A stretch of 64,000 bases of DNA from Nitrospirota bacterium (GTDB lineage: Bacteria > Nitrospirota > UBA9217): positions 1,792,001-1,856,000 of the forward strand of contig CAWFSF010000006.1 of NCBI GenBank assembly GCA_963818475.1. The letters are read 5' to 3'. Positions 18,703 through 45,854 of this stretch are shown one piece after another. The notes under the pieces are model-generated. The model searched no databases. It had not been told where the DNA came from and saw only the letters and a list, made by a program, of their open reading frames with translations. Position 1 is the first letter of the stretch. Each line of letters starts with the position of its first letter. The position numbers were made by a program, and so were the translations under genes.

Positions 18703-18715
18703 ACACGGATAGATC

Positions 18716-19753: not shown

Positions 19754-19764
19754 CATGGAGGCAA

Positions 19765-19892: not shown

Positions 19893-19903
19893 GGTGTTTC
19901 ATT

Positions 19904-20740
19904 ATGACCACAACTAACATCTACCTGCCGTTCAAGACATCGATCACGAACGTCAAAGAGGTGGCAAAGGACGTGAAGCTGTTCTCTATAAGCGTCCCCG
20001 CTGACTTCACCTATCAGCCCGGCCAATTCGTCATGGTATCGGTCATCGGCGCCGGCGAGGTCCCGATCTCGATCACGTCCACACCCGGGAAGAACAAGGA
20101 CCTTGAGCTTTGCGTGCGCACGGTCGGACGCGTTTCCTCTGCGATAAACTCGCTTACCGCAAACGATATGATATGGATCCGCGGTCCCTACGGCAGGTCC
20201 TTCCCGATCAACAGTCACCAGGACTCCCTGTTTATCTGTGGAGGCATCGGCATTGTGCCGCTGCGGCCGCTGATAAACCAGATGTTGAATAGCCGTGAAG
20301 CAGGCGCACAAACAGGCGTAACGGTCATGTACGGCGCGCGGAACCCCTCGGAAGTATTGTTCATGGATGAGGCCGTTCAATGGCAGGAACGGGGCGCCAA
20401 CATCGTCATGACCGTAGATGTGTGCAATATCGAGGGGTGGAAGGGATGTACGGGGTTGGTTACCGATCACTTTGCCAAGGCGAACGTCGACTACAAGAAC
20501 AGTACTGCTTACATCTGCGGGCCCCATGTCATGATCCAGGCAGCCATGCGAGATCTGTCGCTCATGGGCATGCCCGATGATCACATCATCACAACGCTCG
20601 AAGCGCATATGAAGTGTGGTGTGGGAAAGTGCGGGCACTGCTTCTGCGGGGGAAAGCTCATCTGTGAAGAAGGCCCTGTTTTTTCACTGGAAGAGATAAA
20701 AAAATACAATATCAAACCGGGCATCGACAACCTGGGCTGA
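19904..20740 (+). CDS. AsrB/sulfhydrogenase-gamma-like FAD/NAD(P)-binding 2Fe-2S protein
   Basis: PGQFVMVS..GAGEVPISI, RGPYG, GGIGIVPLR, ICGP and MKCGVGKCGHC...CEEGPVF. Confidence 0.9.
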   Translation: MTTTNIYLPFKTSITNVKEVAKDVKLFSISVPADFTYQPGQFVMVSVIGAGEVPISITSTPGKNKDLELCVRTVGRVSSAINSLTANDMIWIRGPYGRSFPINSHQDSLFICGGIGIVPLRPLINQMLNSREAGAQTGVTVMYGARNPSEVLFMDEAVQWQERGANIVMTVDVCNIEGWKGCTGLVTDHFAKANVDYKNSTAYICGPHVMIQAAMRDLSLMGMPDDHIITTLEAHMKCGVGKCGHCFCGGKLICEEGPVFSLEEIKKYNIKPGIDNLG

Positions 20741-22735: not shown

Positions 22736-23878
22736 CTACCGCATCCGCCTCGCCAATTCAGCTCGCGCAGCAAAGATATCGGCACGGGCAAGCAGCCAGT
22801 AGCTGATCCGCTCCTTCCCCTTCTGGATGCAGGGCCGCTCGCTCCATTGCGTAAGAGAAATACGTTCCGACTGTTTCAAATCTTCATCGAAGTTCGACCG
22901 TGCCTGCGCCGCGATCGCCGGATCGTGAACCACCGCCACGAGCTCGTAGTTGATCCGTCCGCTCCTGATATCCAGATTTGCAGAACCGGCGATGACCGTA
23001 TCATCAACGACCGCCAGCTTGGCATGCAGCATGGTCGGAAGATATTCCCACACCTCGATCCCCGCGCGCAGCAGTCTGCCGTAAAGCCCGCGCGCGGCCC
23101 ACCTCGCCATCGGCACATCGCTCTTCCGGGAGAAGAGAAGCCGCACGCGCACGCCGCGCCGCACCGCCCGTTTGAGTGCGCGCATAATGCTTCCCGGAGG
23201 ATAGAAGTACCCCATGGCAAGGTCGATGCTGGTGGCGGCAGTGCCGATCACCGTGCCATATCTCTTGCGCACCGGCTGCAGCGGGTTATCCAGCCCGCTT
23301 TCGAGAAACCGCACGCCGTCCTGCGGGATGTTCGGAACCGTGCGCTCGCGCCGAAGGCTAATAAGTTTGAGCCGGCGGATCATACGGTGGATCGGCAATT
23401 CCGCCCTGACCCACATCCGGGCAAAAGATGGGCGGAGCCGTGCAACCTCATGACCCGTTATCTCCAGTGCGTTATCGCGCCAGGGAAGCTCACCGTAGGC
23501 GCCCCGGTAATATTCGTCAGCGACATTGAAGCCGCCGATATAAGCAGCATGGTTGTCTATCAGCAGAAGTTTCCGGTGGTTCCGGAACAGGAACAGGCCG
23601 TGTTTGAACTGCCGGAACCAGCGGACATCGCCGCCCGCAGAGCGCAACCCGTCCCAGAAAGAGTCAGGGAGCGCCCAGGACCCAAAGGAATCCACCAGCA
23701 CCATCACACCGACACCCCGCTGGGCGGCAGCAACAAGGTGGCTGCGAAACTCCCGCCCCGTCTCGTCGTCGGCCACAACATACATTTCAAGGGCAATAGA
23801 GGTACGGGCCACGCCGATGGCTGCGAACATGGCGGGGAAAGCCTCGATGCCGTTTTTGAGGAGACGGACGGATGTCAT
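22736..23878 (-). CDS. Cardiolipin synthase ClsB-like phospholipase D
   Basis: Two HKD motifs (RNHRKLLLID, LHAKLAVVD...GSANLD); no N-terminal TM. Confidence 0.88.
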   Translation of the reverse strand: MTSVRLLKNGIEAFPAMFAAIGVARTSIALEMYVVADDETGREFRSHLVAAAQRGVGVMVLVDSFGSWALPDSFWDGLRSAGGDVRWFRQFKHGLFLFRNHRKLLLIDNHAAYIGGFNVADEYYRGAYGELPWRDNALEITGHEVARLRPSFARMWVRAELPIHRMIRRLKLISLRRERTVPNIPQDGVRFLESGLDNPLQPVRKRYGTVIGTAATSIDLAMGYFYPPGSIMRALKRAVRRGVRVRLLFSRKSDVPMARWAARGLYGRLLRAGIEVWEYLPTMLHAKLAVVDDTVIAGSANLDIRSGRINYELVAVVHDPAIAAQARSNFDEDLKQSERISLTQWSERPCIQKGKERISYWLLARADIFAARAELARRMR

Positions 23879-23981
23879 GGCGACGATACCAGTGCAAAGT
23901 TCGAAGTGCAAAGTTCAAAGTGCAAAATGAGGAACGTGAGATCTTCCCCCCACTTTGCATTTTTCAATTTGCAATTTGCAT

Positions 23982-24455
23982 TTAAATATTCTCGAACGTA
24001 TACTCCACCTTCACCTTCAGGTCCTTCCTGAGGGAATGATAGACCGAGCAATACTTTTCCTGCGACAGCGATATTGCCCGTTCGATCTTTTTCGCGGTCA
24101 ATCCCGTGCCGGTCACCGAGATGATCATTTCGATGGAAGTATAATACTGAGGAGGCGTGGGATTTCGTTCACCTACGATGTCCATCTTATAGGACTTTAT
24201 TTCGATCTTCATTTTTTTGAGGAACGACACCATGTCGATCCCCATACACCCGGCCACACTCAGCAGGAGCGTTTCCGTGGGCGAGCAGCCCCATTGCTGC
24301 GCTGCATCGTATTCGACCTCATACCCCCGGTTCGTGCGGCCCACGAAGATGAGTTCCTTGTCCCAGGTAAGGGTCGCCTTGTTCACCTGCGATATTTTTG
24401 ATTTGTACGCTTCGAGCGATTCGTCCAGCTCATTGATCTCTTTTTCCTCAGACAT
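23982..24455 (-). CDS. OsmC/YhfA family protein
   Basis: SPTETLLLSVAGCMGID...LSQEKYCSV. Confidence 0.9.
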   Translation of the reverse strand: MSEEKEINELDESLEAYKSKISQVNKATLTWDKELIFVGRTNRGYEVEYDAAQQWGCSPTETLLLSVAGCMGIDMVSFLKKMKIEIKSYKMDIVGERNPTPPQYYTSIEMIISVTGTGLTAKKIERAISLSQEKYCSVYHSLRKDLKVKVEYTFENI

Positions 24456-24525
24456 ATACCACTCCTTTATAATAAAATGGAAGGGCCAGGTACGGTGGAT
24501 GCTCACCGCTGCCCCCCGTTTCGTG

Positions 24526-24840
24526 TCAGCCCTGGTTCTTCATTCTCTCACGCAGAAGGCTCACGGCCTCCTCTTCCCTGCCCGCCTCCACCTTCAGGAC
24601 GTAGATCTTGATCTCCCGCAAGGGATAGGCGTCGAACGTGGCCTGTATCCCGGCCGCGCCGAGATACAGGATGTATTCCATCATGGTGGTGTCGCTGTAT
24701 CCCTTGCCCGTATCTCCGCGCAGGACCTCAACATATTCGACAGCTTCATCGGGCTCCGGCTCATCGGTTGTCCCTTGGTCCCAGACGTCGCCATAGGCCC
24801 ACCCGTCGTCACTATTATTTGTATCATCGTTCCGTTTCAT
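24526..24840 (-). CDS. Acidic hypothetical protein
   Basis: Open frame with host-like codon use between flanking genes; no motif recognised. Confidence 0.6.
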   Translation of the reverse strand: MKRNDDTNNSDDGWAYGDVWDQGTTDEPEPDEAVEYVEVLRGDTGKGYSDTTMMEYILYLGAAGIQATFDAYPLREIKIYVLKVEAGREEEAVSLLRERMKNQG

Positions 24841-24946
24841 AGGGTTATACTTGTAAATAGTAATGGAGAGCACCGGGAGAGTCAAATAAAAAATCCTGAT
24901 ACTAGCGTTGTTGACAGATCTCCGGAGAAAGGCTACTATTCCTCCC

Positions 24947-25141
24947 ATGATAGAGACAACAGGTTTTCTCCTCGGATTCGGCTTCAGCGTGCTTGTCTAT
25001 GTCCGCTCCATCAGGACCGCGGACCTGTCATGGCAGAAAAAAGCGGTCTACTCCCTTTTCACGTTCATCGGGATCACCGGTACGGTCTTCCTCGCCGGCG
25101 TCCTGATCGCCCATGCGTTGAGAAAGTACTGGGCATTTTAG
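24947..25141 (+). CDS. Small two-TM membrane protein (probably leaderless)
   Basis: TTGACA-17-TACTAT at 24911-24939 with ATG 7 nt later; two hydrophobic helices. Confidence 0.65.
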   Translation: MIETTGFLLGFGFSVLVYVRSIRTADLSWQKKAVYSLFTFIGITGTVFLAGVLIAHALRKYWAF

Positions 25142-25530
25142 CCCGCCTCGTTGATCGCATCAAGCGCCTCTTCTGCAGCTTCACGCACCCCGGGATGGAC
25201 GTCGGCCATGCAGGCCTCGATCGCCGCTCGAGCCGCAAGTGCCCTGATGGTCCCCAGAACGGACAGCGCATCGCCGCGGATGGTGGGATTATCATGCTTC
25301 AGGAGGGCGATGAGGCCCGGCACCGCAGCATCAAGCCCTTCCCGGTGCTCACCCACCAGCTCTTCCACCAGCGCAGTAGCTCCGAGCCGCACGCGAATCT
25401 GCTCGTCACCAACCATGTCGGCGATGAACCGGCAGAGGGATTGGTCCTGCCTGAACATGGCTATGATATTGTCGAGAAAACCCTTTTCCATGTACTCGAT
25501 CAGCATGGCCCGCATCTCATTCTCTTCCAT
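25138..25530 (-). CDS. HEAT/PBS-lyase repeat protein
   Basis: LIALLKHDNPTIRGDALSVLGTI and D.HPGVREAA.EAL. Confidence 0.85.
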   Translation of the reverse strand: MEENEMRAMLIEYMEKGFLDNIIAMFRQDQSLCRFIADMVGDEQIRVRLGATALVEELVGEHREGLDAAVPGLIALLKHDNPTIRGDALSVLGTIRALAARAAIEACMADVHPGVREAAEEALDAINEAG

Positions 25531-25632
25531 AGGCTCGTCCTCGTAGAAACGCAAAGGGCGCCAAAACGGAAAGATCCTTTCGATCTTTGCGTCCTGCGCG
25601 CCTTTGCGGAAACCAGCGGGTGATGAACTGCT

Positions 25633-27090
25633 TTAGAACTCGACGGACTCGATGATCCTTCTCACTTCGGCGGGCATCTCACCGATGGCGCCGATCTTCT
25701 TTTTGATAAAGGAGTTGCTCATCATGAGCTTCATAGCGGTCATCATGTACTTCTTTTTGAACTCGTCCCGTTCCTGCAGCGTCATTTCGGCATAGCGGTT
25801 CATATAGAACGCGCGATAGCAGTCTACGATCGCCCGGTCGAGCTCTTCCAGGGTCATGTTCTTCGGTTTGATGATCGGATCGATCAGATTATACTTCCGG
25901 TAGTCGGTGACCGCAATATAGGGCTTCAGGTCGTTATAGATGTCTGCATAGGGCCAGGGTGCGATGGCGAGGAAGTGCGCCATGTCCGGATTGAATTCCA
26001 TGGCCAGTTCAAGCGTCTTTGCGATGGAATCCTCGGTCTCGTCCGGAAAACCGAGGATCATGGAGGTCTCGGTGATGATGCCGTGCTCGCGGCAGAGCGC
26101 CAGCGCCTTTTTGGATTCCTCGAGGCTCAGGTCCTTCTTGATATAGTCCAGGCTCGATTGCTGCGTTGACTCGGTGCCCACATAGATGTGGATGATGCCG
26201 GCCTTGCGGTACTTGGGGAGGATGTCCTCGTCCCGGATGATGTCGGCGGCCCGGGTCTCCATCAGGATATACTGTCCCACTTTTTTCTCGATCAGCAGGT
26301 CCAGGAGCTTTTCCCAGCGCTGCCGGTCCGGCGTGGGGTAATCGTCGGTAAAGAGCACCACGTCAACGCCGAACTTGTCCCGGAGCTCGAGCATTTCCCG
26401 CACAATGTCCTCGGGGCTCCGGGCGCGCCACTTCTGGTGCCAGAACTTCTGCTGCGAGCAGAACGTGCACTCCTTGTCGCAGCCGCGCGACGTGTCGACT
26501 GCGCCGAGGCGCGAACCGGGCAGCACGTAATAGTGGTAATCGCTCCAGTCCAGGAGGTCCCATCCCATGGGCTGGTTGTCAAGGTTCTGCATGAGCGGCC
26601 GGTCCGGGGTGACCGCAAGCGCTCCGTTCTTCCGGTAAACGAGACCCTTGACCGCGGCAAGGTCGTGATTGCCGGTCACGGCGTTCAGCAGCTCCACGAT
26701 CGTCCGCTCTCCTTCTCCGCGCACAACGAAATCCAGCCCGGGAGCCAGGCCGAACATCTCTTCGTACATAAAGGTCGCATGCACGCCTCCCAGGATGGTC
26801 GTAATCGCGGGATCGACCTTCTTGGCAAGCTCGATGACCAGCATGCCGTCAGGCGACGTGCAGGTAAATACGGACACTGCCACAAAATCCGGTTTGTATT
26901 CCCTGATCTTCTGCTCGATCTCGGGAAAGCCCACGTTCTTGGTCATGGCGTCGTAGATTGCGGCCTCATAGCCTGCCTGGCGCGCGGCGCCGGCAAGATA
27001 TACCAGATACAGCGGCACCCAGCTGCCCGCCACCTCGACCACGCCCGCATGGAACGGGACTGTTATAAAGAGGACCTTCTTGTTGCCCAT
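25633..27090 (-). CDS. Cobalamin-dependent radical SAM enzyme, BchE-like
   Basis: B12-binding domain (LGGVHATF), SRGCDKECTFCSQQKFW and DIIRDEDIL..YRKAG; the N-terminal FHAGVVEVAGSWVP resembles BchE. Confidence 0.9.
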   Translation of the reverse strand: MGNKKVLFITVPFHAGVVEVAGSWVPLYLVYLAGAARQAGYEAAIYDAMTKNVGFPEIEQKIREYKPDFVAVSVFTCTSPDGMLVIELAKKVDPAITTILGGVHATFMYEEMFGLAPGLDFVVRGEGERTIVELLNAVTGNHDLAAVKGLVYRKNGALAVTPDRPLMQNLDNQPMGWDLLDWSDYHYYVLPGSRLGAVDTSRGCDKECTFCSQQKFWHQKWRARSPEDIVREMLELRDKFGVDVVLFTDDYPTPDRQRWEKLLDLLIEKKVGQYILMETRAADIIRDEDILPKYRKAGIIHIYVGTESTQQSSLDYIKKDLSLEESKKALALCREHGIITETSMILGFPDETEDSIAKTLELAMEFNPDMAHFLAIAPWPYADIYNDLKPYIAVTDYRKYNLIDPIIKPKNMTLEELDRAIVDCYRAFYMNRYAEMTLQERDEFKKKYMMTAMKLMMSNSFIKKKIGAIGEMPAEVRRIIESVEF

Positions 27091-27398
27091 CCTGAGTTCA
27101 CCCTGTTCTTTTTCGTATTCCGGAATTCTTGCATCCTCATGCCAAAACAGCCGCGAGAATGTCCGTTATCTTACCAGATAATCAGCTCATTAAAAAGCAG
27201 AAAATGCATCTTCTTCCTGGAGAGAGCAACGAGGACCGTGAGTTTTTTGACCATGAACGACGACCCTTGATCTTATGAACTGGTTGTAAATATGAGGGCC
27301 CATCTTAATAGGACACACGATAAGTGTCAAGGCTTTTCCGGACTACAGCAAGCCAAAAACCGTTGACTTTGGCGGTAAAGGCAAGTAATATGACGCCG

Positions 27399-27776
27399 AT
27401 GATTCCCGTGGTTATCATGAGCATCAATTACTCGCACGACATTGCCACGGCGCTGCTGGCGGTCAGCGGGGCCTTTCTGTGGATGCTGTCGAGCCTGTAC
27501 CCGTCGGAAGCCTCGATCGGCATGGAACGCTATTTTGTCACAACCTACCATGGCATCACCAGGCTTGCGAAACTGTCCCTGTTCTGGATCCTGGCCGCGG
27601 GCGTGCCGCGCATCGTTTTTTACACTCAGTATGAATGGTCCGATGCGGCCGGAGACCTGCAGGTCATCGCGATCATCATCAAGCATGTTGTTATGTTCCT
27701 GCTCGTCGGCACCGGTCTGTTCTACTGGTCCAAGCTTGCCAAACGCGTAAAGCAGCTCCAGCTGAAGCACGGTTAG
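27399..27776 (+). CDS. Three-TM membrane protein with NYxHDxAT motif (paralog 1)
   Basis: INYSHDIATALL...GVPRIVFYTQYEW...IIKH; promoter TTGACT-17-TAATAT at 27363-27391. Confidence 0.8.
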   Translation: MIPVVIMSINYSHDIATALLAVSGAFLWMLSSLYPSEASIGMERYFVTTYHGITRLAKLSLFWILAAGVPRIVFYTQYEWSDAAGDLQVIAIIIKHVVMFLLVGTGLFYWSKLAKRVKQLQLKHG

Positions 27777-27798
27777 TTATTCTTAAGGAGGCAGCAGA

Positions 27799-27987
27799 AT
27801 GATCAGAACTCTCGTAATGGGCGCAGTACTCGGCCTGGTGGGCGGGCTACTCTTCGGCGTTCTTTATTTCGGCGCAGGCCAGATAACCACCCCCATGGCC
27901 TACATCCATGACATTTCCGGCACGGGCCTCGGCATCCTGATCGCCGCGATCGTTTACCTTTATAAGCGGGGGCCGGCACGCAAATGA
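27799..27987 (+). CDS. Small two-TM membrane protein
   Basis: AAGGAGG RBS; stop overlaps the next start (ATGATG). Confidence 0.75.
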   Translation: MIRTLVMGAVLGLVGGLLFGVLYFGAGQITTPMAYIHDISGTGLGILIAAIVYLYKRGPARK

Positions 27988-28472
27988 TGCCCCGCAGGAT
28001 CAAAACGCTATCCGCTGCTTTACTCCTGGTGCTGATCCTTGCCTGTGCAGGAGGACTGCCGGCAGAATTTCCCGCCCCGGACTTTACGCTCAAGAGCCCC
28101 CTGAGCGGTACCGAGGTCAGTCTTGCATCCATAAAAGGAAAACCGACCATCATCTACTGGTTCACCAGCTGGTGAACACGCTGTGTTGAAGAGATCCCGC
28201 TGGTCCAGCGGGCAGAAGAAAAATACAAGAACGAAAAACTGACCGTGCTCTGGGTGGGCCACCAGGACCGACCGGAAAAGCTCACGGAATATGCAAAAAA
28301 GAACAATATCCCCGACTATTTATTCGATGGCGATGAGAATATGTCGAAAAAATTTCGCATGACCTACGGCGGCGGTGTCGTATTCATCGATCGGACCGGC
28401 GTCGTCAAGATGCGGGTCCCGAAGGGTTTTTCTCCCGCCAGCCTTGAGGCCGCGCTCAAAAAGATCCTTTAG
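27984..28472 (+). CDS. Selenocysteine-containing TlpA/ResA-like thioredoxin-fold lipoprotein (UxxC)
   Basis: ORFs 27984-28175 and 28245-28472 are in frame and joined by a single TGA (28173-28175), giving APDFTL...KGKP.IIYWFTSW-U-TRC-VEEIP; lipobox ILAC; hairpin downstream. Confidence 0.85.
28176..28215 (+). promoter_or_regulatory. Putative bacterial SECIS element
   Basis: Stem cccgct(g)/(c)agcggg at 28196-28212 with a G-led loop (GGUCC) about 26 nt after the UGA. Confidence 0.7.
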
Positions 28473-28474
28473 GA

Positions 28475-29857
28475 ATGTCTGAAACGTTTTTCATATCCTT
28501 CCGGGAGTCTTTCCAGTGCGCTTTTCTCCTGGCGCTGGTGTTGTACTATCCCTCCGTGCGGGACCGGAAGGATCATGCCGCCAGCGTCGTTGCCGGCGTG
28601 ATTCTCGCTTTCCTTGCCGGGTTCCCTCTGGGCTATCTCCCCGCTCTCAGCAAAGCGCTGCAGTCGCACGAAACCTGGACCTACTGGCGGCACCTTGCCG
28701 AAGCCCTCCTGTTCTCGCTCAGCATCCTGTTCGTTGCCAGGCCTGTTATCAAAGCCCCGCCTGTTGTCCTCTCCCTTGCCCTGTTCGCGCTGGGGTTCTC
28801 GCTCTTCTTTTTCGAATCCCGCGCAGCGGCGTTCATCATCCAGGACATGGGCGCCATGCAGGACAATGTGCAGGGCGCCCTGGCTTCTGCCGCTGGAGGC
28901 CTGGTAGCAGGTTTTGCCCTGCTCGTCCTGCTCAAACCAATGCTCCGCAGGATTCCTTTCGAGAAGGCATTTACCCTGCCCAGCCTCCTGATGACGATCG
29001 GTGCGCTGCAGTTCGGTTTTGGCGGAGTGGCCGAACTCGAGCGGGAGAACATCCTGACCCCGCTTCAGCGGGGGCTGCAGAACTTCCTGGGAGATGCGGT
29101 CAGGGCGGTCCAGAAAACGCTGCTCATCCCCGAGCACCCGTTCCTCGACGTCAACTGGGACGGCCTTGCGCGTTTCATCGGCGGCGACCGCACTGCGCTC
29201 ATGCTGACGGTGATCTTCATCATGACCCCGCCCGTCCTTATCCTCATCCGGCTGTTCTCGCAGCCCGACCCCATCATCGGCAGTGAAACGGTGGCTGCGC
29301 AGCGCCGGACGCAGATCGCCTTCTTCAGAAATGAGCTGCTCTTCAAGACCGTGCCGGTCCTGACGGTCTTTGCGGTCCTGGTGATCATGCTGCACGCGGT
29401 GAATGTATCCATGAATCCGCTCTACGAACCGACGCCGGTGCCGGTACGAGAGGCAGAACAGGCAAAGGTCGTCAAGATCCCCTTTGCCGACAAACTGGGT
29501 GATCTGAGCGACAAAAAGCTCAGAAAATATGTCTACTACTACGGGGCGAAGCAGATCATCTTCATCGCCATCCTGAAGGCTGATGGGGCCGTAGGCGTGG
29601 CCTTGGATGAATGCGAGATCTGCAGACCCGCGGACTGGAACACCGATGCCAAAGGCTATGCCCAGAAGGGCGAGCACCTCATCTGCAAATACTGCATGAC
29701 GCCCATCGCCACATCAACGGTCAACAACCCCGGGGGATGCAACCCCATCCCCATCCCGTTCATCGTTCAGGACGGCTCTATCGTGATCAAGCTTGCTGAC
29801 CTGACCGGCATCTATGACAAGACCCAGGCACTGGAGAAAAAGGGGACGCATCTGTGA
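28475..29857 (+). CDS. FTR1-like permease fused to a DUF2318 Fe-S domain
   Basis: N-terminal FFISFRESFQ (degenerate RExxE), many TMs, C-terminal DECEIC...GY.Q.G..LICKYC...GGCNPIP. Confidence 0.82.
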   Translation: MSETFFISFRESFQCAFLLALVLYYPSVRDRKDHAASVVAGVILAFLAGFPLGYLPALSKALQSHETWTYWRHLAEALLFSLSILFVARPVIKAPPVVLSLALFALGFSLFFFESRAAAFIIQDMGAMQDNVQGALASAAGGLVAGFALLVLLKPMLRRIPFEKAFTLPSLLMTIGALQFGFGGVAELERENILTPLQRGLQNFLGDAVRAVQKTLLIPEHPFLDVNWDGLARFIGGDRTALMLTVIFIMTPPVLILIRLFSQPDPIIGSETVAAQRRTQIAFFRNELLFKTVPVLTVFAVLVIMLHAVNVSMNPLYEPTPVPVREAEQAKVVKIPFADKLGDLSDKKLRKYVYYYGAKQIIFIAILKADGAVGVALDECEICRPADWNTDAKGYAQKGEHLICKYCMTPIATSTVNNPGGCNPIPIPFIVQDGSIVIKLADLTGIYDKTQALEKKGTHL

Positions 29858-31098
29858 TGAGATCCTTCGCCATGCGCATTACGGCATCCTGGTGGCTAAC
29901 TGCTCTCTTCTGCATCCTGATGCTCGCAACCTATATTGCCGCGACATTTGGAGAGCACCCCTTTGCACGCTGGATATCGTTCCTCCTGCTTTCCCCGACA
30001 GGGCTCGCGCTCTACTGCGGCCTCGCAATCAATATCATGCTTGTCAGCATCCGTGTCGTGCTGTTGCCTCTTCAGAGGCCGCTCCCTTCCCGGGATACGG
30101 TCATGTCCATGGACACCTGGTTCACGGTTCCCGCATCCGGTGCAAATGCTGCTTCGCGTGCCGCAGCATGGATGACTGGCCGGGAATTTCCCGCCGCCAT
30201 CACGGGCAACACGGTTTCCGCGATCAAAGGAAAATACTCCTTCCTGCCGGGCACTATCATGCGGGCAGGCATCGTGCTGTTGATGGCAGCCCTGCTGATC
30301 AGCGCGCATACGAGGAAAACCGGCGAGTTGGCGCTGCACGAGGGGGAAGAAGGCGATCTTTTCGGGGAAAAGGTCGCGCTGCGCGCCATCAACGCCCCGC
30401 TGCCGGCCGATTATCTGCAGGTCGGCGATGAAAGTTCGTTCAAACTCAAAGACGTCTCGGCGGTGCTTACAGCACAGGGCGCCGACCAGATCATTGACAC
30501 GCGCTGGCCTGTCCGGATCGCGGGCCGCTTTTGCCGGATCAGCCATTTCGGCTATACCCAGCCGATCACCGTAACGACGGACACAGGATCGTTTTCAAAA
30601 AAGCTGGACCTTGACGTTCTGCCGCCGGGAAAGAGCCAGCTCGTGGCACCCGTGCCAAGCGGTCTCCTGCTCACCATCGCGCTGCAGCCCGAGAAGACGA
30701 TCTCCAAAGGACTGTTGACCGGGAAGCAATATAACCTCGAGACCCCCCGCTACCGGATCATGGTGCAGAACGGCGGTTCGAAGACCCCGCCCCAGGAGCT
30801 GACGCTCCGTTCCAATGAACAGGTTGCCGCGAAAGGGGCCACACTATCGCTCGGCGGAGACAGCAGGTTCATCACCCTGCACTATGCCGTCGATCCTGCG
30901 CTCAGATTCATCTACGCAGGCATCCTGCTCGTTCTGGGAGGGGGCGTTCTGATGCTGTCACGGTTCTTCTGGTACCGCAAGGAGATGGCTGCTGTACTGG
31001 ATGGGGACAGCCTGCTGGTCGGTTTTCAAGAGGAATTTTACAGCAAGTGGGGCATCCTGCAGTTCCACCGCTGGAAGGACGATCTTTTGCAGAAGTAA
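29854..31098 (+). CDS. ResB/CcsB-like cytochrome c biogenesis membrane protein (divergent)
   Basis: Three N-terminal TMs, a periplasmic beta-rich domain, and C-terminal DPALRFIYAG..L..GG plus TM. Confidence 0.65.
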   Translation: MMRSFAMRITASWWLTALFCILMLATYIAATFGEHPFARWISFLLLSPTGLALYCGLAINIMLVSIRVVLLPLQRPLPSRDTVMSMDTWFTVPASGANAASRAAAWMTGREFPAAITGNTVSAIKGKYSFLPGTIMRAGIVLLMAALLISAHTRKTGELALHEGEEGDLFGEKVALRAINAPLPADYLQVGDESSFKLKDVSAVLTAQGADQIIDTRWPVRIAGRFCRISHFGYTQPITVTTDTGSFSKKLDLDVLPPGKSQLVAPVPSGLLLTIALQPEKTISKGLLTGKQYNLETPRYRIMVQNGGSKTPPQELTLRSNEQVAAKGATLSLGGDSRFITLHYAVDPALRFIYAGILLVLGGGVLMLSRFFWYRKEMAAVLDGDSLLVGFQEEFYSKWGILQFHRWKDDLLQK

Positions 31099-31164
31099 CC
31101 GCGGGCATGGTATTTTGTAGCGGACCGCAAGCCGGTTGGCGCGGGCCTGCTGGATGAATTAGCC

Positions 31165-31896
31165 TTATGCAACCCTTGAGGCTGTCGTGTAAAACTTTCC
31201 GCAGAGGAAACCAACCCCTCCGATAGAAAGCAGTACCCCTCCCAAAAGCGCCCAGAGCGCGCCAGGATCGCGGCAAACGCGGACAAGGGCTGTTTTTTCC
31301 GGACCACTGCTGACCGACTTGCTATAGAGCCCGAACTGGCCGAAATAACGAGGATGGAGCGGTTTGAGGCTCGTGATCCGGACGTCTCCTCCGTCATCCC
31401 AGAGCAGCCTCGCCTCCCAGTCCGCATCATACCCCTGGTGGTCTTTGCGTACAATAACGTCCTGGAGCAACAACGCCTTATCGCCAATCACGACTTTCGG
31501 TTCACCCTCTTTGAGCAACACATCCATTTTGAATCCCATGGATGCCGTGAGCAAATGGCCCAGCATGATGAACAGAACGCCGATGTGCATGACCTGCGGC
31601 GAGAGCTTCAGCAGGAATGCCTGCCAGCCGGTCCGGTTCAAGAGCGCTTGTGCGGTACAGAACAGGGTGCTGACCGCCAGAACAGCAAGCATAACGATCA
31701 TCACGTAGATCCACCAGGTTATCGAGATCGTGCCTGCGGCGGACAGCCATCGGAACAGCGGGGTCTCATCGATGCCGGAGAAGAAGGCAAGATTGCCGGG
31801 AAGCGAGAGCGACCCGATAAAGAGAATAATGATGAACGCCGTGAACAGCCAGAATGCTGTTTTCAGTGAAAGCAGGAATTGCATGATCAGTTTCAT
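31165..31896 (-). CDS. ResB-like cytochrome c biogenesis protein (short)
   Basis: FLLSLKTA, STLFCT, PQVMHIGVLFIMLGHLL and DPGALWALLGG. Confidence 0.8.
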   Translation of the reverse strand: MKLIMQFLLSLKTAFWLFTAFIIILFIGSLSLPGNLAFFSGIDETPLFRWLSAAGTISITWWIYVMIVMLAVLAVSTLFCTAQALLNRTGWQAFLLKLSPQVMHIGVLFIMLGHLLTASMGFKMDVLLKEGEPKVVIGDKALLLQDVIVRKDHQGYDADWEARLLWDDGGDVRITSLKPLHPRYFGQFGLYSKSVSSGPEKTALVRVCRDPGALWALLGGVLLSIGGVGFLCGKFYTTASRVA

Positions 31897-31922
31897 TCGA
31901 TCTCCGGCATAACGAAGGACTT

Positions 31923-32690
31923 TTAAAACTGCGTCGGCGGGCTCGGCAGGATCGTGCCGACACCGAAATAGGCAAAAAGAGCCACCGGGAAACCGAGCAG
32001 GCCGATGATCGCCGCCGGCCGGCCGCTCAAGCCCTTCACGTACCGCGCATGGAGATAAGCGCCGTAATAGAACCACATCAGCGTGGCCCAAAGCTCCCGC
32101 GACGTCCAGAGCCAGTAGGTGCCGTAGGCAACGAAGAACCAGACGCTGCCGACGACCAGTGCTACAGAGAGCAGGATCCAGCCATGGACCGCCCCGCGGT
32201 ACTGAAGGGACTCGTGCTCGTTCCTCCCCGAAAGGAGGTACAGCAGACCGATGCAGGCGGAGATGCCGAATAGCGCATAGCTCGTGAAATAGAAAAAAAT
32301 ATGCAGGAAGAACCACGGCGTCATCAGGAAGGGGGAAATGGTATTGATCGGTTCATAAAAGAACGCGACCAGCAGCGTCGTGGCTATCAGCGGCAGGGCA
32401 AGGTCTCGCAACCGCTGCATATCTTTCCGTCGGGAAAAATACCAGTAGATGAGCGCCATGGCAAAGGCGAAAAAAGAGATATTGTCGTGCTTTTCAGTGA
32501 GCGGAATTGTTCCGATCGTCAGCCCCCGTTGGACCAGGCTTGCGACGTGAGCGATGACGCCAGCCACGAACAACCCCTGCCCCAGACGCCCCTCCATGAG
32601 ACCCATGATGTAGAAGGCCGCGGGGATAAGCAGCAGCACGATCGTGATTATGGATTGTGTTTCCTCTCCGAGCGGAAGCGAACAGAACAT
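31923..32690 (-). CDS. ccsA: Cytochrome c synthase CcsA/ResC (system II) with variant WWD motif
   Basis: L.TPWFFLHI...SYA and GSVW...AYGTYWLWTSRELW..W..Y.AYLH. Confidence 0.85.
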   Translation of the reverse strand: MFCSLPLGEETQSIITIVLLLIPAAFYIMGLMEGRLGQGLFVAGVIAHVASLVQRGLTIGTIPLTEKHDNISFFAFAMALIYWYFSRRKDMQRLRDLALPLIATTLLVAFFYEPINTISPFLMTPWFFLHIFFYFTSYALFGISACIGLLYLLSGRNEHESLQYRGAVHGWILLSVALVVGSVWFFVAYGTYWLWTSRELWATLMWFYYGAYLHARYVKGLSGRPAAIIGLLGFPVALFAYFGVGTILPSPPTQF

Positions 32691-32723
32691 GCAATTCCTT
32701 TTCAGTCCGGGTGTGAGTCTGGA

Positions 32724-33110
32724 TCAGTCGTCAAGCAGTCCGCGCTGCCGCATGTCGCGCAGCAGCCCTGCCCAGAGCCAGACGCCGGCGATCATCATCC
32801 CTGCGGCAATGACATACTTGGCGATCAGCCCCGCCTCATGATGAAGCTGAACAGCGTTGGCCCATTCAAAGCTTCGGAATGTCAGAACCCGGGGTATGGC
32901 GCTGACAATGATCCAGGCAACGGAGAACCAAAGCAGACGGATCGTGTTCTTCGCCAGCTTCCGGACATACCCCAGAGTTGCACCATCGCTCCCCGCTTCC
33001 ACCCTTCCGAGCACCAGCCGCATGGCGATGGCGGTGGCGAGCAGCATGGACGTCGCCACATCATGAAAATAATTGTTCATCAGGATGAATACTGCAAAGG
33101 AAGGACTCAT
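32724..33110 (-). CDS. Three-TM membrane protein with NYxHDxAT motif (paralog 2)
   Basis: NNYFHDVATSML...IPRVLTFRSFEW...LIAKY aligns by eye with 27399-27776. Confidence 0.8.
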   Translation of the reverse strand: MSPSFAVFILMNNYFHDVATSMLLATAIAMRLVLGRVEAGSDGATLGYVRKLAKNTIRLLWFSVAWIIVSAIPRVLTFRSFEWANAVQLHHEAGLIAKYVIAAGMMIAGVWLWAGLLRDMRQRGLLDD

Positions 33111-33219
33111 GCACACTCCAAATAACTCATTGTGGTAAAAACAGCAGAAGCTGAACTCCTGCCGGGGAGAAGTCTTTACTCCTGACTCCGCTGACTCCTG
33201 ACTCCTGACTTCTTACTTT

Positions 33220-34569
33220 TTACTTCTTGCTTCCCGCTATTTCACCCGTGCGTTTCATCTCTTCCCGCTCGCGGGCGAACTGTTTGAACGCCCTGCCCTG
33301 CGGGAACTGGACCATCCAGGATGTGAAATGGCTCATGGGAAAACCTTTCCATGATATCTGCCTGATGCGGTCCAGGATCTTCGGCACCGTGAACAGGTCG
33401 GACCTGAGCTGGACGATCGCATCCTCCCGCTCGAAAGGCGTCATCGTGGGATGTTCGTAGGTCGCGTGGTTCCCGTCAAAACTGTCCCAGTCCAGGCCGG
33501 GCAGAAGATGGGGTTTGTAAAGATCGTACAGGTCCGTGCCCGGGAAGGGCGTGGTCATCACGGGATGGGCCGAGACCTTGAGTTCGTCGCAGAGTTTGCT
33601 GATGCCGTCGAAATCCCCGCGGACGTCCTGCCTGCCGCCGACCATGATGAAGAGCATCACTTCGATGCCGTGGTCCCGTATCTTCTTTATGGCGTCACGG
33701 CGCTCACGGCCCTGTTTGTTCACAGCCTTGTATTCCTTGAGGCTCTCGATATTGTTCGATTCCCAACCCACGAGCACGGCCGTGAGACCGGCTTTGCGGG
33801 CATTGTCCAGCAGTTCGTGCGACCGGGGATGCTGCACCGAGGTGAGGTCTCCGGAACCGAACCACCATTTTCCCCTTATGTTCCTGCTCATCTCCCGATA
33901 GAGCTCGATGGAGCGGTCAACGTTCACCCCCCAGATGTTGTCGTCGATGCCCCAGAACAGATGCCGTTTGCTGGCGGCAACCTCCTCGACAACATCTTTG
34001 ATCGGACGCATGCGGACCTTGCCGCCGAAGAACTTGTGCACGGAACAGAAGGAGCAGCTGAAGGGACAGCCGCGCGACGTCTGAAAATATCCATAGACGT
34101 ACTTCGTGTTCCAGAGGTTGGTGACCGGACGGGGCATACTGACGAGGTCGTGGAACGTGCCGTTATACACTGGCTGCAACCGGTTTTTCTCGGCGTCCTC
34201 CAGCAGGCCTTTCCAGATATGCTCTGATTCGCCGAGGACAACGGCATCGGCATGCGCACCGGCCTCCTGAGGAAGAGCGGTCACATGCATTCCGCCGAGG
34301 ATGACCTTCTTCCCCATCTCGCGCAGGCGGTCTGCCGTGCGATAGACCCAGGGTGCCTGCGGCGTAAGCACCGTGAAACCGATCAGGTCGGCATCAGCTC
34401 TGGCGGGGTCGAAGGACTCCTTGTTCGCATCGATCAGCTGGACCTCGACATCCGGCCTGACCTGGCGGGTAAGGCCGGTCATGTACTCGAGAACGGGGGG
34501 TGCAATGGGGAGGCCTTTTGACTTCTGGCCCTTTTCGCCAAAAGGCGGGGAAATGAGCAGTAATTTCAT
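33220..34569 (-). CDS. Cobalamin-dependent radical SAM enzyme (class B-like)
   Basis: ILGGMHVTALP.EA..HADAVV.GE, QTSRGCPFSCSFC, DDN and TPFPGT. Confidence 0.9.
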   Translation of the reverse strand: MKLLLISPPFGEKGQKSKGLPIAPPVLEYMTGLTRQVRPDVEVQLIDANKESFDPARADADLIGFTVLTPQAPWVYRTADRLREMGKKVILGGMHVTALPQEAGAHADAVVLGESEHIWKGLLEDAEKNRLQPVYNGTFHDLVSMPRPVTNLWNTKYVYGYFQTSRGCPFSCSFCSVHKFFGGKVRMRPIKDVVEEVAASKRHLFWGIDDNIWGVNVDRSIELYREMSRNIRGKWWFGSGDLTSVQHPRSHELLDNARKAGLTAVLVGWESNNIESLKEYKAVNKQGRERRDAIKKIRDHGIEVMLFIMVGGRQDVRGDFDGISKLCDELKVSAHPVMTTPFPGTDLYDLYKPHLLPGLDWDSFDGNHATYEHPTMTPFEREDAIVQLRSDLFTVPKILDRIRQISWKGFPMSHFTSWMVQFPQGRAFKQFAREREEMKRTGEIAGSKK

Positions 34570-34680
34570 CGCAATGCAGAAGATTAACTATGTGACAGGA
34601 GGCGCAGAATCAAATGGGAAGCGATCACGGGCCGTTCTTTATTCCCATTCTGAAAACCTTGCGATCCTGTCAAATGAAAA

Positions 34681-35121
34681 TCAAAGCTCCTCACAAAATG
34701 TTTTTATTTTTTCGAGCACGCCGTCAGCTTCCTTCTGGTTCAGCTTTTCCACGACACTGCTCTTTGAGACCGTGCTCATGATCTTTCCCGGGATCTCGTA
34801 CGTGATCTCGACGGCAAGGTCCGTGCCGCCGTTCGCCGGTGTGAACGAGTAGCTCTCCTGGATGGGAAAGCTTCCCTCCATTTTCATGCCGAACTTGCTG
34901 TTTTTGACATTCTCCGTAACATGACCCTTACCGCTGAATGTTATACCGAGCATCCGGTATTCCCAGACGAACGTCGTCCCTGGTTCAACATTTGGGGACG
35001 AGAGGTCCCTGACATCGGTCAGGCTCGTCACATACCGGGTCCAGTTGCCAGGGCTGGTCACGAACTGAAAGACCTTCTCAACGGGAGAATTAATGGACAC
35101 CTTCTTTACGATATTCGCCAT
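34681..35121 (-). CDS. SRPBCC/polyketide cyclase family protein
   Basis: INSPVEKVFQFV..P.NW START-like fold; own TTGTAA-17-TATAAT promoter. Confidence 0.85.
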   Translation of the reverse strand: MANIVKKVSINSPVEKVFQFVTSPGNWTRYVTSLTDVRDLSSPNVEPGTTFVWEYRMLGITFSGKGHVTENVKNSKFGMKMEGSFPIQESYSFTPANGGTDLAVEITYEIPGKIMSTVSKSSVVEKLNQKEADGVLEKIKTFCEEL

Positions 35122-35225
35122 TGCCGTATCCTCCTTGTGCGGTTCTATTGATAGATGAAATTATAGTATAAACACTACGAGATTACAACAGGTTGTTTCG
35201 GACCGCAATACGAAAGGCTGCACAA

Positions 35226-35852
35226 TCAGCCTTTTTTCTGCAGCATGGTCTTCACGCGTTTCAGACGGTAGAACGATTCCCGTTCCCGCTCGCCGATATA
35301 CTGGTTGATGGTCCTGATCTGAAGGCGCAGGGTGGGCACGACCATCTCCTCAAGGACCTTGATCCTTCTCGTGGTCCGCAGGATCTCCTGGCTGAGCCGC
35401 TTTAATTTGCTCTCGTACTTCGCGATCTCCAGCATTGATTCCAGCAGCTTTTCAAAGAGCGTAACCCCGGCCGCAAGGTGAGGCGTCACCGAAAGTTCGT
35501 CGTAGCCGCGCTTGTCCGCATCGCGCACCGGTGCATCATGGTAGGCAATATCCTTGTACCGGAGGCCCCAGATGCTTTTTTCCGCCACATCGATCCCGAA
35601 TTCACGCTCTGTCGCAACCACGATCGATTCTACCGCATCCTTGCCCTCATGACCCAGGGCAAGCGCCCGTTTGAGCAGCGCCTTGCCATAGGTCGTCCTG
35701 ATCTCCTCCCGGGACCGCAGGAACGGCAGCGTCGTGGCCAGGAATTCCTTTATCAGCGCTTGTTTGCGCGCCTTCAGGATACTGATGCTGTTGAGGACCG
35801 ACCGGGACTTTTCTTTCAACAGCAGCAGATTCGTTCTGGTAGGATGGATCAT
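35226..35852 (-). CDS. atpD: V/A-type ATP synthase subunit D
   Basis: PTRTNLL.LK, LKARKQAL and RRIKVLEE; position in the operon. Confidence 0.92.
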   Translation of the reverse strand: MIHPTRTNLLLLKEKSRSVLNSISILKARKQALIKEFLATTLPFLRSREEIRTTYGKALLKRALALGHEGKDAVESIVVATEREFGIDVAEKSIWGLRYKDIAYHDAPVRDADKRGYDELSVTPHLAAGVTLFEKLLESMLEIAKYESKLKRLSQEILRTTRRIKVLEEMVVPTLRLQIRTINQYIGERERESFYRLKRVKTMLQKKG

Positions 35853-35989
35853 ATCGCTCCGCGATAATTGGAAATTGGAGATTTTAAATTTAAAAATGTA
35901 AATTGTTTAAAATAGAAACTATGCCCGCAGGGCATACCGCCAATTTTAAATTTCCAATTTTCACTTTCCAATTTTCAATCGGTATTTCT

Positions 35990-37318
35990 TTACGTAACCG
36001 CCAGCGAGAACTGCTTCATCAGGCGCAGACCCACATCGAGCGTCTCGTGCACCGTACGCCTGGTTGTCCCCTGGCCCACAAATTCGTGCTCAAAAACATC
36101 TGCGAAATCGAGCATCAGGATATCTGCTTTGGTCATGCCATCCCTGCCGACAATGGCCTCGAGCCGCCGCAGATCCCTGCCCTTGGCATAGTATTTATAC
36201 AGATTGTTCGACACTTTCCGGTGGTCCGCTCGGGTATGCCCTTCGCCGATGCCCTTCTGCATGAGTCGGGAAAGGCTTGGCAGCACGTCCATGGGCGGAA
36301 AGATCCCCTTCTGATGCAGTTCCCGGCTCAGCACGATCTGTCCCTCGGTGATGTACCCCGTCAGGTCCGGGATGGGGTGGGTGATGTCGTCCTCGGGCAT
36401 GGTCACCACCGGCAGCATGGTGACCGACCCCTCAAGCCCGTAAATCCGGCCCGCCCGCTCGTAGAGCGACGCGAGATCGGAATACATGTAGCCCGGGTAG
36501 CCGCGCCTGCCGGGCAGTTCTTCGCGCGCCGTCGATATTTCACGCAGGGCGTCGCAGTAGTTGGTCATGTCGGTGATGATGACGAGGACGTCCATGCCCT
36601 TGTCGAAGGCAAGGTACTCCGCAACGGTCAGCGCGAAGCGGGGCGCCAGAAGCCGCTCCATGACCGGTTCATCGGCCATGTTCACAAAGGCCACGAATCC
36701 CGACTGCATCTCCTGCAGCACGTTCAGGTAGAAGGAATATTCGTGAAACGTCAGTCCCAGCGCCGCAAAGACCACGATGAACTTCTGCTCCGCCTTGGCA
36801 AGCCGGGCATTCCGCAGGATGCCGCCGACCACCTCCTTGGAAGGCAGGCCTGCTGCGGAGAAGATCGGCAGTTTCTGGCCGCGCACCAGCGTGTTCAGTC
36901 CGTCGATGGGTGAGAAACCGGTCTCGATGAAGTCTTCCGGCCGGGCCCGGGCAGAAGGATTCATAGGCGAACCCGTGATCGGCTTCCAGAGCTCCGGGAT
37001 ATAGAGGGGCATGCCGTCCTTGGGTTCGAAGGAGCCGTTGCAGATCCTGCCGATGATATCCGGTGACAGCGGCACGCGCTTGATAGCATCGGTAAAGACC
37101 ACGCTCGTACGGTCTACATCTAGGCCCTGGGTGGATCCGTAAACCTCGACCAGGGTCGTGTCGCCGTCTATTTCGAGCACCTCGGCCTCCATCCGTCTGC
37201 CGTCAGGAGCGATGACGTTCACGACCTCGCCGATCCGCACGTTCTGAACGTTCTGCACAAAGAGCAGCGGGCCCGCAATGGTCGTTGTGGTACGATAGAT
37301 GTGTTCGGAAAGTCGCAT
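35990..37318 (-). CDS. atpB: V/A-type ATP synthase subunit B
   Basis: RGQKLPIFS, PGRRGYPGYMYSDLA.LYERAG and THPIPDLTGYITEGQI. Confidence 0.96.
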   Translation of the reverse strand: MRLSEHIYRTTTTIAGPLLFVQNVQNVRIGEVVNVIAPDGRRMEAEVLEIDGDTTLVEVYGSTQGLDVDRTSVVFTDAIKRVPLSPDIIGRICNGSFEPKDGMPLYIPELWKPITGSPMNPSARARPEDFIETGFSPIDGLNTLVRGQKLPIFSAAGLPSKEVVGGILRNARLAKAEQKFIVVFAALGLTFHEYSFYLNVLQEMQSGFVAFVNMADEPVMERLLAPRFALTVAEYLAFDKGMDVLVIITDMTNYCDALREISTAREELPGRRGYPGYMYSDLASLYERAGRIYGLEGSVTMLPVVTMPEDDITHPIPDLTGYITEGQIVLSRELHQKGIFPPMDVLPSLSRLMQKGIGEGHTRADHRKVSNNLYKYYAKGRDLRRLEAIVGRDGMTKADILMLDFADVFEHEFVGQGTTRRTVHETLDVGLRLMKQFSLAVT

Positions 37319-45852: not shown

Positions 45853-45854
45853 AC

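Follow-up and report, generated by a model that had tools for sequence, protein, structure and literature searches.

Why should 2 cobalamin-binding radical S-adenosylmethionine (SAM) enzymes be encoded among membrane proteins that serve the making of c-type cytochromes? The question is raised by a gene cluster in a 64,000-nt stretch of DNA (C6:1792001-1856000, the window in what follows) from a Nitrospirota genome of 4.66 Mb in 7 contigs. The cluster encodes 2 such enzymes (RS1 and RS2), 2 small membrane proteins of one family (NYH1 and NYH2), a CcsA, 2 ResB-like proteins, and, among others, a selenocysteine (Sec) thioredoxin and a FetA-like FTR1-DUF2318 protein. System II of cytochrome c biogenesis is thought to require only ResB/CcsB, CcsA, CcdA, and ResA, and BchE, which RS1 resembles, acts on a porphyrin side chain. 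An earlier note had read the cluster as a cytochrome maturation system that tailors a heme or the cytochrome itself, then exports and ligates it. Listing of open reading frames (ORFs) and family scans recovered every gene that it had named, each where it had placed it (Table 1), and added one conserved cluster gene absent from its list, encoding a small SRPBCC protein. We find strong support for treating the radical SAM enzymes, NYH, and ccsA/resB as one conserved functional neighborhood, and their partnership in several phyla points to an undescribed step in the making of c-type cytochromes. A search of full-text literature, with most subscription journals outside its reach, returned no description of a radical SAM-CcsBA partnership, of the NYH family, or of a CcsA altered in its WWD motif, and the accessible portions of 2 papers (PMC13712944, PMC9012536) do not describe a radical SAM-CcsBA link.

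A gene neighborhood shared by several phyla

The distribution of the cluster genes was followed in 301 Nitrospirota genomes from 121 genera. NYH occurs in 25 of these genomes (22 genera), RS1 orthologues of at least 64% identity in 11, and RS2 orthologues of at least 69% identity in 13, all 13 of which are also NYH-positive. Twenty NYH-anchored loci from the phylum contained a radical SAM gene in 13 cases, CcsA in 7, and a FetA-like gene in 8. A further 20 loci, hand-picked from RS1 and RS2 matches and therefore non-random, had CcsA in 8 and a cytochrome with at least 4 CXXCH motifs in 9. The RS1 homologues fall into 3 tiers of identity, at least 64%, 54-58%, and 46-52%. Those of the 46-52% tier lie in operons with canonical ResB (PF05140), CcsA, and a small NYH-like ORF, often with a LuxE-like synthetase and an RS2-like gene, and with cytochromes of 8-25 CXXCH motifs.

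A wider search with the NYH alignment returned 139 relatives, from which 80 loci of named genomes were kept, all of them NYH-anchored; their genes are greedy ORF calls, which are unreliable in the high-GC Geomonas records. A radical SAM gene is present in 65 of the 80 and lies within 300 nt of NYH in 53, while 48 contain CcsA, 35 a FetA-like gene, and 6 NYH alone. The largest group carries a Nitrospirota label (n = 40; radical SAM gene adjacent in 24, CcsA in 22, FetA-like in 22), followed by Desulfuromonadia (n = 19; RS2 adjacent in 14, CcsA in 12, FetA-like in 12). Among the 4 Bacillota loci, all have an adjacent RS1-like gene and CcsA, and the 5 Actinomycetota loci have an adjacent radical SAM gene in 3 and CcsA in 3; no FetA-like gene was found in the loci of either label. 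Gene order is shuffled and interleaved from locus to locus, to the point that in L042 RS1 stands between the thioredoxin and FetA-like genes, and the recurrence of the set in so many genomes despite this shuffling puts the arrangement far beyond chance. The earlier note had proposed that co-localization of the radical SAM genes with ccsA/resB and NYH be sought in Nitrospirota and Desulfobacterota; it is seen in Nitrospirota and in Desulfuromonadia (Geobacteraceae), and extends to Bacillota and Actinomycetota.

An example outside the window type comes from Geotalea sp. SG265 (L133), where a single strand encodes a 22-heme cytochrome, CcsA, ResB, RS2 (77% identity), NYH, and 2 FtsX permeases, and then a FetA-like protein, a homologue of ResB-like 1 (hhalign 97.9%), and RS1 (56%). 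In Geobacteraceae, Bacillota, and Actinomycetota, the gene set stands beside canonical ResB/CcsA and giant multiheme cytochromes. The co-occurring cytochromes that the same note had suggested identifying are the 9- to 28-heme proteins that adjoin the related clusters outside the window type. The neighboring cytochromes vary greatly in size and heme number, and an all-against-all BLAST of 63 placed 46 in one component through their repeated heme motifs, a merging that leaves no single client family to be named. The giant cytochromes of L058, L059, L065, L078, L099, L126, and L133 contain 16-28 CXXCH and 3-6 CX4CH motifs each, and that of L058 matches a Geobacter CxxxxCH...CXXCH Pfam family. The RS2-NYH pair is also carried by cultured bacteria, namely the Geobacteraceae Geotalea (sp. 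SG265, L133) and Geomonas (G. paludis Red736, L141), and Anaeromyxobacter (A. oryzisoli SG63, L116).

NYH appears from its sequence to be the hub of the cluster and to constitute a new family. Its 2 paralogues in the genome, NYH1 and NYH2, share 27% identity (E 7e-11); there is no third copy, and neither has a match in Pfam or NCBIfam. Across an alignment of 23 members, helix 1 has an Asn, a His, an Asp, and a Thr that never vary, and an Arg that follows helix 2 and 2 Trp residues are likewise invariant. The AlphaFold2 model consists of 3 long helices (pLDDT 86.6); Foldseek found no match to it in the Protein Data Bank (PDB) at E<=0.001, a search that is uninformative because the model is a plain 3-helix bundle. 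When 1.84 billion representative proteins were searched by profile, only 287 clusters matched at E<=1e-3; 2 long representatives are fused to periplasmic SurA/peptidyl-prolyl isomerase (PPIase) or PKD/NHL domains. Where an RS1-like gene lies in a canonical ResB/CcsA operon, the small ORF beside it encodes a distant relative of NYH (hhalign 92-95%). In other loci, RS2 is followed by a co-directional NYH gene in 34 pairs, in several of which the stop codon of one gene overlaps the start codon of the next, and NYH adjoins CcsA in 18 of the 80. A prediction of the RS2-NYH complex scored 0.00 in a run without controls, which is uninformative either way.

HemJ and CopD were considered as relatives of NYH and amount to weak leads at most: NYH1 and NYH2 do not match CopD (PF05425) even at E<=10, and the NYH relatives from canonical clusters reach 26.1 and 22.5 bits, under the cut-off of 32.1. 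One NYH2-type ORF (L097:5709-6542, minus strand) is 278 amino acids long, about twice the usual length, which could reflect a fusion or a missed stop.

An altered CcsA and a Fet-like arm

The CcsA of the window has the Cytochrom_C_asm domain (107.3 bits on PF01578, cut-off 29.9) and falls short of the equivalog model TIGR03144 (120.6 bits, cut-off 187.6). Its motif reads YGTYWLWTSRELW, which is the canonical W-G-x-Y-W-x-W-D with Thr in place of Asp and Tyr in place of the first Trp. We defined as type I all CcsA sequences with at least 35% identity to it and compared them with the CcsA proteins of its own genome and of the collected loci. The type I motif is YG.YWLW[T/S]..E.W against a canonical WG.YW.WD..E.W, and the WWD Asp is missing from all 19 readable type I motifs while 29 of 30 canonical neighbors keep it. 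The tail of the window protein (...SPPTQF) contains no His that could serve as the C-terminal periplasmic ligand (P-His2). Tails free of His (...SPPTQF or ...SPWTQF) occur in 19 of 22 type I sequences, the others being 2 truncated sequences and 1 that keeps the His, and a tail His is visible in most canonical CcsA sequences.

These changes can be placed on a structure, since the type I profile matches the Helicobacter hepaticus CcsBA entry 7S9Y (E 3e-19). The His residues in WFFLHI and LHARY of the window protein align to His 761 and His 858 of the 7S9Y chain, and the alignment stops just ahead of the tail His; 2 of 7 type I members have Tyr or Phe in place of the first retained His. We take the names P-His1 (before the WWD domain) and TM-His2 (in the following helix), and in part the roles of the WWD domain, as given, with the positions checked on 7S9Y. 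In the accessible part of the work on CcsBA, heme is attached from a site made up of the WWD domain and 2 periplasmic His residues, and a P-His variant attaches no heme (PMC8112865). By these residues, the window CcsA is not a standard ligase, and its degenerate periplasmic site fits either a changed heme or a role in export only. The earlier reading as a cytochrome maturation system is sustained in its link between radical SAM enzymes, NYH, and system II, while its claim that the cluster exports and ligates heme becomes uncertain for a CcsA that lacks both the WWD Asp and the C-terminal His.

PF01578 matches were found in 299 of the 301 genomes. Type I occurs in 21 of the 40 Nitrospirota-labeled loci and in 1 further locus, and in 0 of 28 loci from Desulfuromonadia, Bacillota, and Actinomycetota; the Sec-thioredoxin and the SRPBCC protein have the same taxonomic restriction. 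The window genome has about 5 CcsA loci, 2 of them with the canonical WWD motif, which indicates that type I is an extra system. One of the other paralogues, at C6 ~1238152-1240448 (L003/L159), reads YWSWSPKE, with Ser for Asp; the distance to an FtsX permease gene is about 1.3 kb.

Both ResB-like proteins score below the ResB Pfam cut-off (PF05140, 24.6 bits; 9.7 bits for ResB-like 1 and 14.7 bits for ResB-like 2). Profile comparison with canonical ResB recovers them at 98.5% (hhalign, E 3e-15, 354 columns) and 95.7% (E 9e-9), respectively. ResB-like 2 keeps the transmembrane (TM) His, with MHIGV aligned to FH.GL and H106 and H116 invariant, and its profile matches the CcsB part of 7S9Y (E 9e-7); it is the partner of the type I CcsA. 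ResB-like 1 has Arg137 in place of the FH.GL His and no invariant His in its family alignment. A second pair, of a CcsA-like (32%) and a mini-ResB-like (36%) protein, is encoded in the same genome at C2:328000-347999 (L162; 8454-9413 and 9926-10696), where the PF01578 match is split into pieces.

Compared with CcsBA/ResBC (H. hepaticus, PDB 7S9Y/7S9Z), the cluster shares a PF01578 CcsA, a mini-ResB with a TM His, and a ResA-like periplasmic thioredoxin. It differs in the Asp-to-Thr and first Trp-to-Tyr changes and absent C-terminal His of CcsA, in a ResB of only about 243 amino acids, in a second ResB-like protein with Arg for His, in the selenocysteine of its thioredoxin, and in having radical SAM enzymes and NYH built in; unlike system II, no CcdA was seen in the cluster. 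Wolinella NrfI and CcsA1, which we take to be specialized CcsA-type heme lyases for unusual heme-binding motifs, offer another comparison, as the window CcsA is likewise an extra paralogue beside a housekeeping CcsA. Lyases of the NrfI/CcsA1 type retain both the Asp of the WWD motif and the His ligands and do not depend on a radical SAM partner, whereas the window CcsA has a degenerate periplasmic site and putative tailoring enzymes attached.

The thioredoxin gene is open only if the TGA at 28173-28175 is read as Sec, which gives the active site SW-U-x-R-C. In 24 of 25 distinct homologues, the codon at the first CxxC position is TGA. A hairpin resembling a selenocysteine insertion sequence (SECIS) at 28196-28212 is conserved 23 nt downstream of the TGA in the homologues, with paired changes in its stem (CCG...CGG against CCU...AGG) judged by eye from the alignment. 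An Rfam scan of 23000-36500 at E<=1 returned no SECIS family and no cobalamin riboswitch, the only match being a chance one to a miRNA. The protein scores 38.3 bits on the ResA model NF002854 (cut-off 170); its fold and UxxC active site are those expected of a ResA/CcmG-type reductant, and the signal peptide and the lipobox are readings by eye. Homologues of the small TM protein (50-92% identity by tblastn in related loci) lie directly upstream of the thioredoxin gene, and the small TM protein always precedes the Sec-thioredoxin gene. Matches to the selB model occur in 5 pieces and in different frames at C6:1737669-1739560, about 54 kb upstream of the window, reflecting either assembly frameshifts or a broken gene, a distinction that bears on UGA decoding in the thioredoxin.

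The FetA-like protein combines FTR1-like N-terminal helices (25.7 bits, cut-off 25.3) with a periplasmic Cys-rich domain of the DUF2318/FtrD type (PF10080, 81.8 bits), whose CxxC...CxxC...C pattern, read by eye, has longer spacing than the published motif. To judge from sequence, this protein and the thioredoxin resemble Campylobacter jejuni FetA and FetE/F. As far as the available text of 2 reports goes, C. jejuni cannot do without FetA (DUF2318), a FetBCD-type FtsX ABC transporter, and thioredoxins for growth when iron is limiting, through a chemistry that is unknown, and its FetMP-FetABCDEF system shares with the window a DUF2318 multi-TM protein and a membrane-associated thioredoxin (PMC6083913, PMC10783030). 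The 2-permease ABC transporter of FetBCD type is absent from the window cluster and present in related loci: in L045 and L056 the module is adjoined by 2 FtsX genes and an ABC ATPase gene, and L042, L049, L067, and L133 likewise have FtsX permeases beside it. The window departs from C. jejuni in having no FetM or P19 (FetP) in the scanned part (no TonB receptor or heme-binding uptake protein was found either among these ORFs, ~13-48 kb), in a thioredoxin that is a selenoprotein, and in a FetA-like gene followed by a ResB-like gene, as also in Geotalea L133, the whole module being set among radical SAM and CcsA genes. The arm that had been described as the cluster's own iron supply and reductant is better read as a FetA/FetE-like module.

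What the radical SAM enzymes may act on

Both enzymes share the architecture of BchE, in which a radical SAM core comes after a B12-binding domain. For RS1, the BchE model TIGR02026 is by far the best match (396.3 bits) and remains under its equivalog cut-off of 481.35; HpnR comes next (153 bits), and HpnJ (152 bits) and a ladderane-type enzyme (113 bits) also match. RS2 scores 66.2 bits on TIGR02026, and its top match, TIGR04013, reaches just 77.6 bits, with the MCR glutamine methyltransferase model TIGR04014 (70.6 bits) also among its best. A search of PDB sequences found no near solved structure for RS1 (best 9ccb_A, E 7e-16) or RS2, only distant B12-radical SAM relatives. Unlike BchE, RS1 has heme-handling rather than bch genes for neighbors, and no bch or photosynthesis genes occur among the window ORFs scanned, the whole genome not having been searched for them. 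RS2 belongs to a very conserved, unnamed family: its mean column identity is 77% across 26 orthologues from several phyla, which by our inference is easier to reconcile with a small molecule that is always the same than with protein substrates that vary. The likeness of RS1 to BchE and the extreme conservation of RS2 together lead us to consider action on heme or a porphyrin, and that these enzymes tailor heme is a proposal to which we give a little less than an even chance.

Genes that accompany the 2 enzymes differ between branches. In a FastTree phylogeny of the RS1 family rooted on RS2 (topology only), the window RS1 clade travels with type I CcsA and Fet-like genes and is separate from the clade of canonical CcsBA operons. 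HEAT homologues adjoin RS1 in L039/L081 (53%) and L057/L079 (76%) and lie near an RS1-like gene in L066 (46%); the HEAT protein is confined to close relatives. SRPBCC is found in 24 of the 40 Nitrospirota-labeled NYH loci and directly follows RS1 of the 54-58% tier. A LuxE-like acyl-protein synthetase (PF04443, ~420-512 amino acids) is encoded in L059-L061, L063, L064, L066, and L151, often between the RS1-like and RS2-like genes of the canonical radical SAM-CcsBA clusters, and UbiE or O-methyltransferase genes stand beside RS1-like genes in L065 and L066. Cobalt uptake genes (NikR, CbiM, and CbiQ) directly follow the RS1-like gene at L061:12133-14554, which fits a demand for cobalamin, and beta-lactamase2-family genes recur in L039 (2 copies), L052, and L059.

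With confidence about evenly balanced, we read the cluster as an accessory, specialized branch of system II cytochrome c biogenesis built of 3 modules. The first, at the cytoplasmic face, would comprise RS1 and RS2 with NYH, and probably SRPBCC as a ligand carrier; its substrate would most likely be heme b or a porphyrin precursor, altered by C-methylation and/or a BchE-type side-chain oxidation or cyclization. BchQ and BchR are presumably related chlorophyll C-methylases. NYH would anchor the radical SAM enzymes or present the substrate beside the CcsA/ResB channel. The second module, a dedicated channel of CcsA and mini-ResB, would carry the product to the periplasm, where its WWD site has been changed accordingly. 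The third, formed by the FetA-like protein, the His-less ResB-like 1, the small TM protein, and the Sec-thioredoxin, would provide periplasmic thiol and metal redox, so that a Fet-like selenoprotein module stands in place of CcdA/ResA, and the client cytochromes would be encoded elsewhere in this genome. The sequences establish which genes are present, their homologies, the motif changes, and a conserved linkage that ties both radical SAM families and NYH to system II genes and, in many genomes, to very large multiheme cytochromes; we infer heme as the substrate, the order of the steps, and the physical contact of NYH with the radical SAM enzymes and CcsA. A fuller and more doubtful version has RS1 and RS2 docking via NYH and tailoring heme before its export, so that some multiheme cytochromes would carry an undescribed type of heme; equally tentative within this version is the idea that the WWD site of the Nitrospirota CcsA has been rebuilt to fit the tailored heme.

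Several observations weigh against this specialized branch of system II. Without the residues used in ligation, the CcsA/mini-ResB pair may not be a synthase at all. Heme tailoring itself rests on likeness to BchE and on gene context, the nearest models of RS2 are, weakly, enzymes with protein or unknown substrates (TIGR04013 and TIGR04014), and the LuxE-like synthetase of many related clusters could point to protein or lipid chemistry. The window cluster also lacks an apocytochrome, as the earlier note had observed: CXXCH occurs in no real ORF of the cluster, and the sole motif lies in an antisense ORF (27803-28153). As for the synteny, 7 of the 20 NYH-anchored loci from the phylum have no radical SAM gene in the fetched stretch, RS1 of the 54-58% tier occurs with SRPBCC alone, without CcsA, in 5 of 5 fetched loci (L072-L076), and the related genomes are non-independent samples, with all 80 loci of the wider set chosen through NYH.

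The enzymes could instead modify a protein, whether an apocytochrome before its Sec-dependent export, CcsA/ResB, or another client bound for the periplasm, with NYH holding them at the export site. This we consider unlikely. The presence of TIGR04014 among the top models of RS2, the LuxE-like acyl-protein synthetases between the radical SAM genes, and the hint of protein folding or maturation given by SurA/PPIase genes and an NYH-SurA fusion are what such a role would lead one to expect. RS1, however, is much nearer to BchE than to any protein-modifying family, and cross-phylum identity as high as that of RS2 would be unusual for enzymes that track variable protein substrates. The adjacent cytochromes moreover differ widely in size and heme number, and the window offers no candidate substrate gene.

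Distinctly less probable is an anaerobic iron and heme economy, in which Fet-like proteins take up or handle iron, the degenerate CcsA/ResB pair moves heme that is never attached, and the radical SAM enzymes open or remodel the porphyrin for its iron. Parts of the Fet type, which, in the accessible portions of the reports, C. jejuni requires under iron limitation (PMC6083913, PMC10783030), are present here or in related loci. Neither the WWD Asp nor the tail His is present in the type I CcsA, and rubrerythrin and OsmC genes are nearby. This proposal meets difficulty, however, in the absence of the FetM/P19, TonB receptor, and heme-binding uptake genes sought among the scanned ORFs, and in the other phyla, whose RS2-NYH genes lie in operons with canonical CcsBA and giant cytochromes. 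The anaerobic heme-opening enzymes known to us (ChuW/HutW) are not of the B12 type, which also counts against it.

There is a slim chance that the enzymes serve to synthesize or modify a membrane lipid, a quinone, or another hydrophobic cofactor for extracellular electron transfer and are merely co-regulated with the maturation genes. Lipid-related B12-radical SAM models (HpnR, HpnJ, and the ladderane type) do match RS1, SRPBCC is a fold for lipids and hydrophobic ligands, and methyltransferase genes of the UbiE and O-methyltransferase kinds (L065, L066) and a gene of the phospholipase D (PLD) type upstream of the cluster could be read in the same sense. The close linkage with NYH and CcsA in different phyla, often with overlapping genes, nevertheless exceeds what co-regulation would produce, and the scanned loci contain no recurring genes for isoprenoid, quinone, or fatty-acid biosynthesis. 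Finally, an accidental juxtaposition of unrelated operons, suggested by the separate (divergent and convergent) transcription of the 3 parts and the promoter-like sites before RS1 and SRPBCC, is contradicted by the synteny counts, which find the same families together with changed order and strand in Nitrospirota, Desulfuromonadia, Bacillota, Actinomycetota, and other loci, and can practically be dismissed.

If the specialized branch of system II exists, it would mean an extra maturation step, or a modified heme, in the large cytochromes of extracellular electron transfer, metal cycling, and syntrophy; with heme tailoring, the multiheme cytochromes of anaerobic metal- and sulfur-cycling bacteria would be concerned. 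A role would then be found for one of the many orphan "BchE-like" enzymes that occur in non-phototrophs, and the poorly understood FetA/DUF2318-thioredoxin module would be tied to the assembly of heme proteins. Because cultured Geotalea, Geomonas, and Anaeromyxobacter have the RS2-NYH pair, the question is directly testable.

Layout and surroundings of the cluster

The cluster is transcribed as 3 arms (Table 1): RS1 with the HEAT gene on the minus strand, NYH1 to ResB-like 1 on the plus strand, and a convergent minus-strand arm from SRPBCC to ResB-like 2. Promoter-like sites lie upstream of SRPBCC (35188-35160, minus strand) and RS1 (27330-27302, minus strand). A terminator-like hairpin with a T-run at 33142-33164 (minus strand), between RS2 and NYH2, could be an attenuator.

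Table 1. Genes of the cluster, with positions in the window and the family matches behind each assignment.
Feature	Position	Strand	Family match or remark
HEAT-repeat protein	25138-25554	-	PF13646 (HEAT_2) 5e-08; downstream of RS1
RS1, BchE-like cobalamin-binding radical SAM enzyme	25633-27090	-	Radical_SAM 1.7e-27, B12-binding 5.4e-26
NYH1, three-helix membrane protein	27399-27776 (alternative start 27324)	+	no Pfam/NCBIfam family
Small two-TM protein, 62 amino acids	27799-27987	+	no family; conserved in related loci
Sec-thioredoxin lipoprotein	27984-28472	+	AhpC/TSA 7e-16, Redoxin 6e-14 with TGA read as Sec
FTR1-DUF2318 (FetA-like) membrane protein	28475-29857	+	PF10080 4e-23, PF03239 8e-06
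ResB-like 1	29854-31098	+	profile comparison with canonical ResB
ResB-like 2, miniature ResB, ~243 amino acids	31165-31896	-	profile comparison with canonical ResB
CcsA, type I	31923-32690	-	PF01578 1e-30
NYH2, NYH1 paralogue between RS2 and CcsA	32724-33110	-	27% identity to NYH1
RS2, second cobalamin-binding radical SAM enzyme	33220-34569	-	Radical_SAM 5e-15, B12-binding 8e-12
SRPBCC (Polyketide_cyc2) small ligand-binding protein, first gene of the RS2 operon	34681-35121	-	PF10604 4e-13

The flanks are unrelated to the cluster: OsmC, the PLD-type enzyme (22736-23908), and rubrerythrin are encoded upstream of it, and a V-type ATPase operon lies downstream. The closest cytochromes are encoded about 10 kb away, at 44881-46643 of the window. 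The segment 44881-47323 encodes a 5-heme c7-like cytochrome, a 424-amino-acid protein with 3 CXXCH motifs and no Pfam family, and a UbiE-type methyltransferase. On the other side, at 16573-20737, a pyruvate kinase gene comes before those for a molybdopterin oxidoreductase and its Fe-S and FAD/NAD subunits. A search of sequencing runs, which listed no RNA run, found window DNA at a small share in soil and sediment metagenomes.

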